DNA from: an uncultured Muribaculaceae bacterium
GTDB lineage: Bacteria; Bacteroidota; Bacteroidia; Bacteroidales; Muribaculaceae
DNA: 64,000 bases
Reading direction: 5' to 3'
Assembly: GCA_910587235.1 (NCBI GenBank)
Contig: CAJUKD010000002.1
Location: 52,943 to 116,942, forward strand
The position numbers and the translations under genes were made by a program. The notes beneath the pieces are model-generated. The model was not told the origin of the DNA and ran no database searches. It saw only the letters and a list, made by a program, of their open reading frames with translations. This document shows, one piece after another, positions 56,564 to 60,214 of the stretch; the stretch's first letter is position 1; every line of letters starts with the position of its first letter.

Positions 56564-58207
56564 TCAGAAGCGGAAACCTGTAGAGAGGACTACGTTGTGA
56601 TTGTTCTCTGTAAGGTCGGCTTTCGGCGCACGGATGCCGGCATAGTCGGTGTAGGCGTGGAAACTGCCTGTGCGGTGACGCCAGCTGTAGGTTGCGTCGA
56701 TATACCATGCCTTGTACCGGTAGCCGAGTCCGAAGCTGATATTCTGTGTCGTGTTGGTAAAATTATAACTCAGGTCCGTTCCGGCGGTCACAACCTCGAT
56801 GTCGCCGTTGCGTGCGGCATCCTTCACTCCTGATGTCTGGTAGTTGTAGCCGGCACGTACGCTGAAACGTGGCGTGACGCGGTATTCTGCGCCAAGACGC
56901 ACGATATTTGCGCCTTTATAGTAGTTCTTGATGTCGGAGTTTACGTATTCGTTGCTCTCGAAATTCAGGCCATAATATCCTGACTGGCTCTTAACCCGCA
57001 TTGCGTCGTAGGCCACACGCTCGTAGTCGAGGCTGACGATGGCACGGGGTCCGATGTAGAGCGAAGCGCCAACCATGAAGCGCCAAGGAGCGTTGAGGCG
57101 CGAGTCGTAGCTATAGAGCATGTTGTTTTCGTCGCCTGTATAATCGTTGCCTTTCAGAGGGTTCTGGGTGTCGGGATTGGTGCTTTCGGGAGCGCCGGGG
57201 TTATAGTAGTCGTAGTTGACCGTCGCTCCGCCCTGATGATTGAGAGAATACCATGTGGGAGTGTGGATGGCAGCACCTATGCGCAGCATTTCTATGGGAC
57301 GGAATATGACACCGAATTTCACATTGAAACCGGTTCCGGATATCCATTTCGAGTTGTTCATGGCCCAGTCAGCGCTTCCTTCGACTGTCCGCTGCGAAGG
57401 CAGGGTGTATATATCGGCTTTGTCCATGCTCTCGCTGTAGTAGACCTGACGGTTGTATTCCATATCAAGTATGCCGAAGCCTATGCCCCAGTAAAAGACA
57501 TCGCTGATGTTTCCGCCGAAATCGATATTGTATTCGTCGACATGCCCCGACTCGCGGAATGTGTACTCGGCGTCGCCTACAGTATTGTTGCCGTAAAGTC
57601 CCTTGTACTTATCGTTGTAGACTCCGTCGCCATTGATCATATAAGCATTGTAGGCCAGAATGCTCATCCAGTCGCAGTCGGAATCGAAGTATGGATTATA
57701 CTTTCCGCCGAGACTCAGGTCGGCGGCATTGGTACCGTTCGTAAACGATGCGATATAGTTTGTCATCGAACCGTCGGTAGTGCCGTTATAGCCGTGGCCA
57801 AGGCGCTCGAAAGAGGAAAGACGGCTGTAGCTCACGCCCCAGGAGAAGGAACGCAGCGTCGCGTTATTACCCAGGTTGGCAGTGCCGACATAGCCTATAT
57901 TGTCGAAATAGAACTTGGTATTGTCACGGTCGATTTTCATCGTAGGGGTGGCAGTCGAATAGTTTCGCGCCGATATATTGACGGTAGCGCCTACTTCGCT
58001 GCGACGGTATATGCCTATACCTGCAGGGTTCTGTCCGAGCGTCGAAAGGTCGCCTCCTACAGATGTGAATGCTCCGCCCATGCCGACGAAGCGCGCTGTG
58101 CCGCGCAGCTCCGAGGGCGTTACGGAATATGCGTCGACAGCACTCTGTGCCGTCGCACCGGCAGCTGCAAGAGCCGCCATAGCTGTCAGTAATATCCGGA
58201 TCTTCAT
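56564..58207 (-). CDS. outer-membrane beta-barrel of the FadL/OMPP1/PorV-like type
   Basis: Signal peptide MKIRILLTAMAALAAAGATAQS. The hatch-like N-terminus GTARFVGMGGAFTSVGGDLSTLGQNPAGIG fits the G.G.A....D.....NPA pattern of FadL/PorV families. Terminal ...VLSTGFRF. Confidence 0.7.
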   Translation of the reverse strand: MKIRILLTAMAALAAAGATAQSAVDAYSVTPSELRGTARFVGMGGAFTSVGGDLSTLGQNPAGIGIYRRSEVGATVNISARNYSTATPTMKIDRDNTKFYFDNIGYVGTANLGNNATLRSFSWGVSYSRLSSFERLGHGYNGTTDGSMTNYIASFTNGTNAADLSLGGKYNPYFDSDCDWMSILAYNAYMINGDGVYNDKYKGLYGNNTVGDAEYTFRESGHVDEYNIDFGGNISDVFYWGIGFGILDMEYNRQVYYSESMDKADIYTLPSQRTVEGSADWAMNNSKWISGTGFNVKFGVIFRPIEMLRIGAAIHTPTWYSLNHQGGATVNYDYYNPGAPESTNPDTQNPLKGNDYTGDENNMLYSYDSRLNAPWRFMVGASLYIGPRAIVSLDYERVAYDAMRVKSQSGYYGLNFESNEYVNSDIKNYYKGANIVRLGAEYRVTPRFSVRAGYNYQTSGVKDAARNGDIEVVTAGTDLSYNFTNTTQNISFGLGYRYKAWYIDATYSWRHRTGSFHAYTDYAGIRAPKADLTENNHNVVLSTGFRF

Positions 58208-58250
58208 AAGATAAATCGTTGAAAAGATTGTTTTTGATTGTCAGTTCGGC

Positions 58251-59426
58251 TTACCTGCGGCCGCGTCCTCCGCCACCGCCGCCATGCGAACCGCCGCCAA
58301 ATCCGCCACCGCCTGAACGATGTCCGCCCGAAGCTCCGCTGCCCCACGACGACGAGCGGCTTGGCGAAGACTGGTGGAAGTTGCTGCTGTTGCCCGACGA
58401 GCGGCTGTTACTGTTGCCGCTGTTATAGTTCGAACGTCCGCGACGGCCGTTGCTGCCGCTGTTGTTGTAATTATTGTCGGAAGATGAGGGACGGTACTTG
58501 TTGCCTCCGTTCTGGACAGGAGCTGTCTGATTGTTTTTGTAACGGCCTCTGCTGCCGGGACGTACGGTTCCGTTGGGAGCGATCGAAGGCGTGTTTCCGG
58601 GGCGGTAGGAATTGCCGTTCTGGCCCGGATGACGGTTACCGGATGCGCCTGAATATACAGGACGGTGCGGACGGGAAGCACCGGGAGTCGACGGACGCCA
58701 TGCATGCGACGGTCCGCCCCATCCGGGAGCGTGGCCGGGACACCATCCGTGTCCCCAGCCTGGATACCATGCGGGACCGTACCAGGGATTTCCCCATCCC
58801 CAGCCGAAATCCCAACCCCAGCCGGGAGTAAAGGACAGCGACCATCCGGGACCGTAGCCCCAGTAAGGGGAGTAATAGGGCGAATATGGTCCCCACATGT
58901 AGGAAGGCAGTCCGTATCGCCACGACCATGGCGAAGCCCACGGGTCGGAATCGACTATGTAGACATTGATGTCGGTGGGCTGCGACGATGCAGCATAATA
59001 ATACCTGAGGTCTTCGTCCTTGCTGCCACTGACAACTTCGGGATTATGATAGCGTTCGATACGTCGGGTATAGGCGAAATCGTCGTCCTCGCGAAGAGCC
59101 GACACGGAATCGGAAGTATTATAGTTTCCGCGACGGTTATATGTATCCTCGTCGATATCGAGCGGACGTGCAGGCGCCATGGCACGTTGTGCGACAGCCT
59201 GACTTGCCGGAGCGTCGATATACTCAGGATAGACATTGTTTTTGCGGCTACGGGCTATCGAATCCTGCTTCTGCCGTTCGGCGGCACGACGTTTGGCGGC
59301 CTTTGAGGGCGAGTAGTAGATGTCGTCGTCATAAAAGTCGTCGTCACCGGCAAAAACAATGACAGGAGAACCAGCAGCCACCAGGAAGAGAAGCAACCTG
59401 GAGATGTATTGATTAACTTTTTTCAT
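58251..59426 (-). CDS. secreted low-complexity protein with a Trp/Gly/Tyr/Pro-rich block and a Ser/Asn/Gly/Arg-rich tail
   Basis: Start moved to MKKVNQYISRLLLFLVAAGSPVIVFA (signal peptide, ATG at 59426). The 391-aa ORF ends GGGGFGGGSHGGGGGGRGRR. It stops 43 nt upstream of the barrel gene on the same strand, and I saw no terminator between them. Confidence 0.6.
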   Translation of the reverse strand: MKKVNQYISRLLLFLVAAGSPVIVFAGDDDFYDDDIYYSPSKAAKRRAAERQKQDSIARSRKNNVYPEYIDAPASQAVAQRAMAPARPLDIDEDTYNRRGNYNTSDSVSALREDDDFAYTRRIERYHNPEVVSGSKDEDLRYYYAASSQPTDINVYIVDSDPWASPWSWRYGLPSYMWGPYSPYYSPYWGYGPGWSLSFTPGWGWDFGWGWGNPWYGPAWYPGWGHGWCPGHAPGWGGPSHAWRPSTPGASRPHRPVYSGASGNRHPGQNGNSYRPGNTPSIAPNGTVRPGSRGRYKNNQTAPVQNGGNKYRPSSSDNNYNNSGSNGRRGRSNYNSGNSNSRSSGNSSNFHQSSPSRSSSWGSGASGGHRSGGGGFGGGSHGGGGGGRGRR

Positions 59427-59524
59427 GTTCGTGGCTGTTTTCGTTGTTTCTTCGTTTTGATTTTTCTTTGACATTATGACCGCATGGATCGCATATGGTT
59501 TAATGCGCGCGGTCATTATTTATA

Positions 59525-59532
59525 CAAAAATA
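59525..59532 (-). promoter_or_regulatory. candidate -7 box (TATTTTTG on minus strand) for the Trp-rich protein gene
   Basis: Plus strand reads CAAAAATA, about 100 nt upstream of the ATG at 59426. Confidence 0.4.
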
Positions 59533-59662
59533 ACCATTCCGTCAGAAATTACGGCCGTATTCAGACGATATGCGCCGACAATTATGTTTTTTTTACTATC
59601 GCGGACGGCCCGGCGAGCAATAAAGGCCGCCGGGCCGCGGAATCAGCTATATGTTGTCGAAA

Positions 59663-60214
59663 TCATTTCCGTACAGCAGGTCTTACTTCGTAGGCAGCCA
59701 TGGCTACGGTGAAGCCCCAGTAGATGAAAGCGATGGAAGTAAGGAATGAAACCATCAGCATATCGCTTACGTAACCGGCCTCAAGGAAGAAGAATCCTAT
59801 AAGGCAGAGAAGGATACCGTTGATCACACCGAGCCACCAGTAACGCTGACGACGTCTGGCCGCCGACGACACGAAAGCCTCTATGCCCCAGAATATAAAG
59901 ATAATAGCAAGGAAATAAGGGAATACCATCTCGGAAAGCAGTACGCTGCGCACCAGCATGAAGCCGATGAACATGTCGATCACCCCTCCGGCGAGCCACC
60001 ATCCCCAGCCACGTCCGCGGTTGGGACCCGAGGCAGCACAAAGTTGTACGATACCGGCAAGCACGAGGAGCCAGCCGAAAATCTGCGAAGCCACGGCATA
60101 GCCTGCTGCAGGCCAGATCCAGTATGCGAAGCCGCCGAGCACCAGAAGGATGCCCACCAATAGAATTACCCACCAGTAGCGGGTGGTGCCGATGTAGTTA
60201 AGGTCTGTTTTCAT
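59663..60214 (-). CDS. HdeD/DUF308 family membrane protein
   Basis: RYWWVILLVGILLVLGGFAYWIWP...LLVLAGIVQL is a repeated two-helix pattern typical of DUF308. Confidence 0.65.
   Translation of the reverse strand: MKTDLNYIGTTRYWWVILLVGILLVLGGFAYWIWPAAGYAVASQIFGWLLVLAGIVQLCAASGPNRGRGWGWWLAGGVIDMFIGFMLVRSVLLSEMVFPYFLAIIFIFWGIEAFVSSAARRRQRYWWLGVINGILLCLIGFFFLEAGYVSDMLMVSFLTSIAFIYWGFTVAMAAYEVRPAVRK

Follow-up and report, generated by a model that had tools for sequence, protein, structure and literature searches.

The window analysed here, the whole stretch of 64,000 nucleotides from an uncultured Muribaculaceae bacterium (GenBank assembly GCA_910587235.1, contig CAJUKD010000002.1, positions 52,943 to 116,942 of the forward strand), carries on its minus strand the gene of an exported tryptophan-rich protein and, directly downstream, the gene of an outer-membrane barrel of the FadL fold. 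The explanation we favour, and to which we give an even chance of being correct, is that this barrel, which would be of the B1R/OmpS type, has in the Trp-rich protein a dedicated partner, disordered and associated with the outer membrane. Judged by sequence, the pair is the Muribaculaceae counterpart of the BF9343_1562/1563 locus of Bacteroides fragilis. The Trp-rich accessory protein is unlike any described; a barrel with a dedicated accessory is a known kind of system. The sequence-only reading of this stretch had pointed out the extreme composition of the protein and had missed the main part of its context, the obligate FadL-type barrel downstream. The components of the pair are given below in the numbering of the 391-residue protein, with the evidence for each in brackets, where dN/dS denotes the ratio of non-synonymous to synonymous substitution rates and pLDDT the predicted local distance difference test.

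59349..59426, minus strand: signal peptide, residues 1-26, MKKVNQYISRLLLFLVAAGSPVIVFA, of the signal-peptidase-I type (homologues align from the same Met).
58947..59348, minus strand: N-terminal part, residues 27-160, with conserved short motifs (invariant columns, pLDDT, dN/dS 0.17).
58698..58946, minus strand: Trp/Gly/Pro/Tyr block, residues 161-243, with 16 Trp in 83 residues (residue counts, genome scan, dN/dS 0.09, pLDDT below 50).
58254..58697, minus strand: cationic Ser/Asn/Gly/Arg tail, residues 244-391, with RPG and RGR motifs and the end GGGGGRGRR (charge, invariant residues, dN/dS 0.28).
58208..58250, minus strand: intergenic spacer of 43 nt with no terminator-like site (sequence and terminator scan).
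56564..58207, minus strand: partner gene, encoding an outer-membrane barrel of the FadL fold with 547 residues and 14 strands, a hatch at its N-terminus and long extracellular loops of acidic character (AlphaFold2, Foldseek).

The minus-strand open reading frame (ORF) at 58251-59516 translates into 421 amino acids and matches the one listed in the sequence-only reading. Its residues 191-273 (58698-58946, minus strand) form a stretch of 83 residues, of which 16 are Trp, 18 Gly, 14 Pro and 9 Tyr, and the manual count of 16 Trp in about 83 residues is therefore exact. Among the 148 residues that follow there are 34 Gly, 30 Ser, 20 Asn and 18 Arg, and the sequence terminates in GGGGFGGGSHGGGGGGRGRR; these counts and the GRGRR terminus bear out the earlier description of a Ser/Asn/Gly/Arg tail with an end resembling Arg-Gly-Gly (RGG) runs. 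The Trp block is the most extreme of the 2.55-Mb genome: among six-frame ORFs of at least 100 amino acids, the runner-up 83-residue stretch has 10 Trp, and the binomial probability of 16 or more Trp in 83 residues is 4e-16 at the genomic Trp frequency of 1.03%. Tandem Repeats Finder detects no DNA tandem repeats in the gene, so that the Trp pattern is kept at the protein level. The gene is present as a single copy in its own genome. Its true start is most likely the ATG at 59426 (M31 of the listed ORF), which yields 391 residues with a signal peptide, because all homologues begin there with MKK and a signal peptide. The signal peptides of the homologues mostly end in A-x-A followed by Q, and the window protein has no lipobox Cys.

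The reading frame is kept by selection. It is open from the YTRRIERFHN motif to the stop in all 78 orthologous loci, and the remaining five frames reach 90% openness in only 0-5% of them. The two overlapping frames that had been named as possible competitors (58238-58831 on the plus strand and 58241-58705 on the minus strand) are both interrupted in orthologues and were rejected. The near-identical relative L104 shows too few differences in the Trp block and tail, and selection was assessed instead in 25 more distant, independent orthologue pairs with 60-97% amino-acid identity. By the Nei-Gojobori method, dN/dS is lowest in the Trp block (0.09), intermediate in the N-terminal part (0.17) and highest in the aligned tail (0.28); this comparison of orthologues, which the sequence-only reading had proposed, upholds the coding frame throughout. 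Within the Trp block, 847 of the 1,297 differences fall in the third codon position. The block is the most constrained part of the protein and not a spacer.

Conserved positions are found in all three parts of the mature sequence. The N-terminal part contains DDDIYY, a Lys/Arg-rich helix, D-x-D-x-YNRR, a D-S-V sequon of the O-glycosylation type, F-x-YTRRIERYHNP and NVY, and its invariant columns are D34, D35, Y37, D94, Y96, N97, R98, T120, E124 and N128. The acidic-aromatic patch described from the sequence is thus real, consisting of DDDIYY with D34, D35 and Y37 invariant. W224 is invariant in the Trp block, and R289-P290-G291, R388 and R390 are invariant in the tail, which has 20 Lys and Arg against one Asp or Glu and a net charge of +19.

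AlphaFold2, run with a 118-sequence alignment, returns a mean pLDDT of 51 and a predicted template-modelling score (pTM) of 0.26. Besides the signal-peptide helix, the only element predicted with confidence is helix 40-63 (pLDDT about 90), which corresponds to the conserved basic helix-like patch that had been recognised from the sequence. Residues 158-391 have pLDDT below 50, and no strand is predicted from the 118 sequences. As a monomer, the Trp-rich protein is predicted to be almost wholly disordered. The combination of strong purifying selection with the lack of a predicted fold suggests that structure or function may be gained only in a complex or at the membrane.

By composition the protein belongs to the sticker-spacer class, with aromatic and Arg stickers, Gly/Ser/Asn spacers and predicted disorder, this being a compositional class and not a homologous family. 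The sequence-only reading had taken these features as typical of phase-separating or fibre-forming proteins of eukaryotes. The presence of Trp and Tyr beside Arg, the Gly/Ser/Asn spacers and the predicted disorder agree with the sticker-spacer part of that idea; nothing in the data speaks for phase separation or fibres as such. Phase separation is neither supported nor excluded by the evidence, and the fibre-forming aspect finds no backing in the AlphaFold2 model, which shows no beta-solenoid or amyloid-like fold. Aromatic-plus-RGG low-complexity domains are known from eukaryotic proteins of the FUS/hnRNP type, indolicidin and tritrpticin are rich in Trp, Pro and Arg, and Trp-rich cationic peptides partition into membrane interfaces. 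The window protein resembles all of these in its aromatics combined with Arg, its Gly/Ser spacers and its predicted disorder, a likeness of composition and not of descent, and it differs from them in being bacterial and extracytoplasmic and in having its aromatic residues in one block and its Arg residues in another.

The Trp-rich protein has no match in Pfam and NCBIfam scans, and its PDB sequence-profile matches were dismissed as spurious, being Gly/Ser-linker matches to antibody fragments. A first homology search returned more than 371 relatives of 330-440 amino acids, all annotated as hypothetical and mostly from Muribaculaceae. A profile search of 1.84 billion representative proteins yields 1,246 clusters at 50% identity with E≤1e-3 and 304 with E≤1e-30. 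Such features had been called rare among signal-peptide-bearing bacterial proteins, a view that finds no support: the family comprises about 1,250 clusters at 50% identity and is spread across Bacteroidales, with lipoprotein variants in other Bacteroidota. A profile built from Muribaculaceae matches 55 of 292 good genomes of the order, in 39 of 200 genera, and a profile of diverse members recovers proteins of Bacteroides fragilis, Phocaeicola, Coprobacter and Dysgonamonadaceae. In the literature, nothing was found on the family beyond the mention of a gene number in PMC4999547, and searches with the B. fragilis locus tags and UniProt accessions gave no further papers.

The order of blocks is maintained throughout the family: the signal peptide is followed by (D/E)DD(I/L)YY, a Lys-rich stretch, DVDEYNRR, E/F-Y-T-E/R-R-I-x-R-F-H-N-P and NVY, then by the Trp/Tyr/Gly/Pro block, often a His run, and an Arg/Ser/Gly/Asn/Thr tail of variable length ending in RGRR, GGRR or RGRH. 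The spacing between Trp residues across the family peaks at 2 and 4 residues, which corresponds to a WGWGPS-like hexad. In 186 of 220 members, YNR is followed within 60 residues by a D-(S/T)-(A/I/L/V/M/T) sequon, the general O-glycosylation motif of Bacteroidetes, a frequency that fits an extracytoplasmic location. Outside Bacteroidales, the barrel homologue is still preceded by a protein with an aromatic block and an Arg/Ser tail, which there is a lipoprotein. These variants (L197-L203, from other orders and classes of the phylum) have a lipobox ...GCYTQ or ...SCGSYQ, and the CGSYQ...YYDxDGIY variant retains the acidic-aromatic motif. Through these variants the N-terminus appears membrane-anchored, and the module of Trp-rich protein and barrel is phylum-wide. 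The lipoprotein counterparts are often richer in Tyr than in Trp, and a barrel homologue still follows them.

The barrel gene specifies a protein whose AlphaFold2 model is confident (pLDDT 86, pTM 0.81). Its top Foldseek match is BamG (9hiv_F) from the BAM complex of B. thetaiotaomicron, and E. coli FadL, TodX, TbuX and other BamG structures are matched as well, with E-values of 1e-17 to 2e-20 and target-normalised template-modelling scores of 0.60-0.65. Residues 21-70 form short helices ahead of strand 1, in the hatch region, and the NPA motif (N60, P61, A62) is invariant in 38 homologues. The match of the barrel to PF03349 (FadL/OmpP1/TodX) scores 22.8 bits, below the gathering cut-off of 29.7; several close homologues carry a precomputed PF03349 match, and a PDB sequence-profile search finds TbuX at 9e-6. 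On the strength of these profiles and of the modelled fold, the barrel is a divergent member of the FadL family. The genome holds two other FadL-like ORFs, of 422 and 437 amino acids; since these are of BamG size, the window barrel is a separate paralogue and not the essential BamG.

The association of the two genes is conserved far more widely than their surroundings. In each of the 22 loci that offer enough DNA, drawn from many Bacteroidales families, the gene directly downstream of the Trp-rich one encodes a barrel homologue; the two are paired in B. fragilis too, and in other classes of the phylum the barrel is paired with the lipoprotein partner. The barrel has 520-560 residues across loci, and a similar spacer, of 31-37 nt, separates the genes at annotated homologous loci. 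Flanking genes vary between lineages, so the conserved unit is the gene pair. Upstream of the pair the window contains the following features.

59427..59518, minus strand: probable 5' untranslated leader of about 90 nt (proposed from the -7 box and the conserved start ATG at 59426).
59525..59532, minus strand: -7 promoter box TATTTTTG of the two-gene operon (read from the sequence; its promoter function is put forward from the consensus only).
59663..60214, minus strand: gene of a DUF308/HdeD-like inner-membrane protein (Pfam DUF308, E 1e-14).

The -7 box is of the Bacteroidetes type, and its position would put the upstream ATG at 59516 at the transcription start, where translation is unlikely to begin. 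The possession of its own -7 box and of a short, terminator-free spacer points to the pair being transcribed as a two-gene operon. The DUF308 gene appears to have its own terminator-like GC-rich hairpin, at about 59600-59640, and the -7 box lies after this hairpin. A DUF308 gene stands upstream on the same strand in 9 of the loci examined, about one third, from Muribaculaceae and a few other families, and is absent in Bacteroides. An 8-bp inverted repeat, ATGACCGC ... GCGGTCAT, is located at the start of the predicted 5' leader (59473-59518 of the window, minus strand).

The B. fragilis member of the family connects the window to a locus with known biology. This protein, P0327 (WP_220392185.1, annotated as a hypothetical protein), has a 556-residue Toluene_X-like barrel 34 nt downstream, with a calculated mass of 62.0 kDa. 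The published BF9343_1563 (Q5LEV6) has 556 residues and 62 kDa, and its tryptic peptides include YDANGKPLYTTPGNYYGMYDDGVANFHSQER and YEENNATTVLTPETTK (Table S1, PMC12853789). Both peptides are exact substrings of P0376 and P0377, which share a 90%-identity cluster with the barrel beside P0327. The agreement in peptides, length and mass identifies the B. fragilis barrel as BF9343_1563 (OmpS/B1R-S), the receptor of the toxin BSAP-1, and the gene upstream of it (BF9343_1562, HMPREF1080_01555, BF638R_1644) consequently as a member of the Trp-rich family. Full-length identity between the window barrel and B1R-S is 31%, and the Trp-rich protein shares 29% identity with its B. fragilis relative. The loci BF9343_1562/1563, HMPREF1080_01555/01556 and BF638R_1644/1645 (OmpS/OmpR, B1R-S/B1R-R) are alike to the window in the two-gene arrangement and in the block order of the partner; they differ in that only the barrel has been studied there, the upstream protein having only been shown not to be the receptor. 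Compared with the B. fragilis protein, its Muribaculaceae counterparts are richer in Trp and Asn and poorer in Ser and Tyr.

OmpS/B1R-S is the surface receptor of BSAP-1, a toxin of the MACPF type (PMC4999547, PMC12853789), and deletion of the OmpS barrel causes a competitive colonisation defect in gnotobiotic mice (PMC4999547). The producers of BSAP-1 carry a resistant barrel allele, 69.8% identical. The toxin binds via a 38-residue disordered, Arg-rich and acid-free C-terminal domain, and its binding site on the barrel is a negatively charged extracellular groove, a charged patch that is absent in the resistant allele (PMC12853789). We searched 80 gut-metagenome loci and several B. fragilis contigs and found no MACPF toxin gene beside the barrel; the genes seen nearby encode cytidine deaminase, a fimbrillin-like lipoprotein and an OMP_b-brl_2 protein.

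Variation within a species links the tail of the partner with the barrel. Human-gut metagenome contigs of another Bacteroides species (L144 against L177/L187) display two haplotypes at the locus, which at the DNA level are 98-100% identical over the flanks and over the Trp-rich gene up to two thirds of its length. Identity falls to 56-88% from the tail-coding third through the barrel and the downstream fimbrillin-like lipoprotein gene, and then returns to 99%; it is about 97% at the last 200 bp or so of the barrel. The barrels of the two haplotypes are 78% identical, and the differences between the partner proteins are confined to the tail. The block in this second species independently reproduces the published B. 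fragilis pattern, in which tail and barrel travel together. In the B. fragilis group analysed, tail and barrel vary too little to bear on this point. The polymorphism between L144 and L177/L187 resembles the one between BSAP-1-sensitive and resistant B. fragilis, with no toxin gene visible there.

Tail and barrel also carry opposite charges. The predicted extracellular loops of the window barrel have a net charge of -13, against +19 for the tail of the partner. Across 114 unique pairs the loops average -17 (standard deviation 3.9) and the tails +19 (standard deviation 8), and the two charges correlate negatively (Spearman rho -0.39, p = 2e-5, with kinship ignored). The charge complementarity of loops and tail is only suggestive.

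Taken together, the favoured explanation proposes the following course. The Trp-rich protein is exported by Sec and would be cleaved by signal peptidase I, and its N-terminal motifs (DDDIYY, YNRR, YTRRIERFHNP) might then dock on the barrel, holding the protein at the outer membrane, a task that a lipid anchor would take over in other Bacteroidota orders. The constrained Trp/Gly/Pro block might rest against the barrel or at a membrane interface. The tail, rich in Arg, Ser and Gly and with a net charge of +19, could make electrostatic contacts with anionic parts of the envelope, most attractively with the acidic extracellular loops of the barrel or with lipopolysaccharide.

Several observations weigh against this proposal. 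The contact between partner and barrel is something that we infer, as are the topology of the pair and the role of each block, and AlphaFold2 gives the partner no structure (mean pLDDT 51). The B. fragilis barrel alone works as toxin receptor in B. uniformis or B. thetaiotaomicron and on purification formed a 1:1 complex with BSAP-1 for which no further subunit was reported (PMC4999547, PMC12853789), from which it follows that a stable stoichiometric complex is not needed for assembly of the barrel; these hosts may carry partner genes of their own. The upstream gene alone gave no sensitivity to BSAP-1 (PMC4999547). The haplotype boundary at the tail could reflect only the fast evolution of low-complexity sequence beside a recombination tract, and the charge correlation, calculated without phylogenetic correction, involves acidic loops that are common in outer-membrane proteins.

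Among the competing explanations, the one that survives best, although we regard it as unlikely, makes the Trp-rich protein a secreted cargo or surface matrix: the barrel would export the disordered protein or nucleate it on the cell surface, where cation-pi contacts of Trp and Tyr with Arg would let it assemble into a fibre coat, a gel or a condensate. This carries the sticker-spacer idea of the sequence-only reading over to the bacterial envelope. Such a material would suit the predicted disorder and the diblock composition, in which an uncharged aromatic block precedes the +19 Arg/Ser/Gly tail. The tail diverges with the barrel within species, as expected of surface-exposed parts under toxin or phage pressure (PMC4999547), and the barrel is surface-exposed in B. 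fragilis (PMC12853789). However, FadL-fold barrels are plugged by the hatch and none is known to translocate a polypeptide, and this barrel retains both the hatch and the NPA motif. The model predicts neither an amyloid-like nor a solenoid fold and no DNA repeats are present, and the lipoprotein variants have no acidic lipoprotein export signal directly behind the Cys (CYTQ, CGSYQ), a lack that, according to the published rule, points to an anchor facing the periplasm.

A periplasmic acceptor is more doubtful still. Here the barrel would be a true FadL-type importer of hydrophobic molecules, the Trp-rich protein, held beneath the outer membrane, would accept the greasy cargo or shuttle it across the periplasm, and its tail would reach anionic inner-membrane lipids or peptidoglycan. 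The barrel retains the FadL hatch and the NPA motif, a motif on which transport by E. coli FadL depends, and for B1R-S the depositors and authors predict that it transports hydrophobic molecules (PMC12853789). The lack of an acidic export signal in the lipoprotein variants would place the protein on the periplasmic face, the strong constraint on the Trp block is consistent with a binding function, and fadL-family transposon mutants of P. merdae are broadly sensitive to xenobiotics (PMC12669032), their orthology to the window barrel not being established. Set against this, no ligand is known, FadL substrates are thought to exit laterally into the membrane and not into the periplasm, the disordered Trp/Gly block offers no pocket, and the co-divergence of tail and barrel within species is left unexplained.

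A bolder version of the partnership, speculative and in our judgement rather improbable, would have the cationic tail threaded through to the cell surface or displayed there, its natural binding site being the acidic groove on the outside of its own barrel. Tail and Trp block would jointly build a disordered layer on the outer membrane that associates with itself through cation-pi bonds, and BSAP-1's C-terminal domain would mimic the tail. If true, the layer would add to the envelope of gut Bacteroidota a structure not recognised before, with a part in colonisation, and the mimicry would explain the joint swap of tail and barrel between toxin-producing and toxin-resistant haplotypes. Least probable is the notion that the two genes are mere neighbours and that the Trp-rich protein has a role unrelated to the barrel or is fast-evolving low-complexity filler, to which the activity of the barrel as receptor without its own partner co-expressed, and the conjectural nature of their interaction, lend some credit, but which is opposed by the pairing, which persists at all examined loci across orders despite differing flanks, by the common promoter and short terminator-free spacer, and, as regards filler, by the Trp-block dN/dS of 0.09, which excludes it.

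The dedicated partner that we favour has parallels among known systems. In BamG-BamH and BamG2-BamH2 of the Bacteroidota BAM complex (PDB 9hiv, 9n2d, 9hjm; PMC12578637, PMC12611786) a FadL-fold barrel holds a partner protein, either instead of or in addition to transporting lipids, and the BamG2 and BamH2 genes are adjacent. BamH is a folded surface lipoprotein, whereas the window partner is non-lipidated and predicted to be disordered; BamG is essential and has about 400 residues, whereas the window barrel has about 550 and its B. fragilis orthologue is deletable (PMC4999547). Identity of the pair with BamG-BamH was rejected on account of the deletable orthologue, of the partner being without a lipobox and predicted disordered, and of the two other FadL-like ORFs of BamG size. 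PorV in type IX secretion is a FadL-like barrel that binds an exported protein through a terminal signal, and the window barrel has a weak NCBIfam match to PorV_fam; a PorV/PorQ system with type IX cargo was rejected, as the match reaches 34.7 bits against a cut-off of 90 and the partner has no type IX C-terminal domain. An amyloid of the curli or Fap type was discarded in view of the absence of a predicted strand and of a tandem repeat and of the hatch plugging the barrel, as against the open channel of CsgG or FapF. Sortase-type signals (PEP-CTERM, GlyGly-CTERM) were likewise set aside, the last 30 residues being Gly/Ser/His followed by RGRR, with no hydrophobic helix. In E. coli, RcsF has a disordered segment that is associated with, and possibly threaded through, OmpA, OmpC or OmpF. 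The window partner is similar to RcsF in being exported, in its disordered segment, in its proposed association with a barrel and in the lipidated versions found in other lineages; RcsF differs by its folded signalling domain and its use of general porins, and there is no homology between the two.

The B. fragilis barrel decides strain-level competition, as receptor of BSAP-1, and is needed for gut colonisation, and a constrained disordered partner offers a testable handle on the role of the barrel. If the favoured explanation is true, the family would be among the few large conserved families of intrinsically disordered proteins that work in the bacterial cell envelope. The joint divergence of tail and barrel within a species suggests that the partner may matter for resistance to toxins or phages.

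A few further observations concern single loci. In Parabacteroides merdae, the xenobiotic sensitivity of mutants in NQ542_07320 and NQ542_08455 (PMC12669032) would fit an envelope-barrier role, orthology with the window barrel not being established. The ENA contig of the 97% identical relative (L104:3001-4002) has TAG in place of TAT at codon 334, a change by which the protein would lose its final 58 residues and with them the conserved GRGRR end; the coverage of this contig is about 4x, and the stop may be a sequencing error or a real truncation. Two loci (L134:5442-7019 and L135:5442-7019) contain an inserted gene, flanked by the cytidine deaminase gene and a B. fragilis-type barrel with 94% identity, for a predicted lipoprotein of 525 residues that matches nothing in Pfam, NCBIfam or PDB. 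The insert occupies the position of BSAP-1 in strain 638R and could be another strain-specific toxin or accessory gene.

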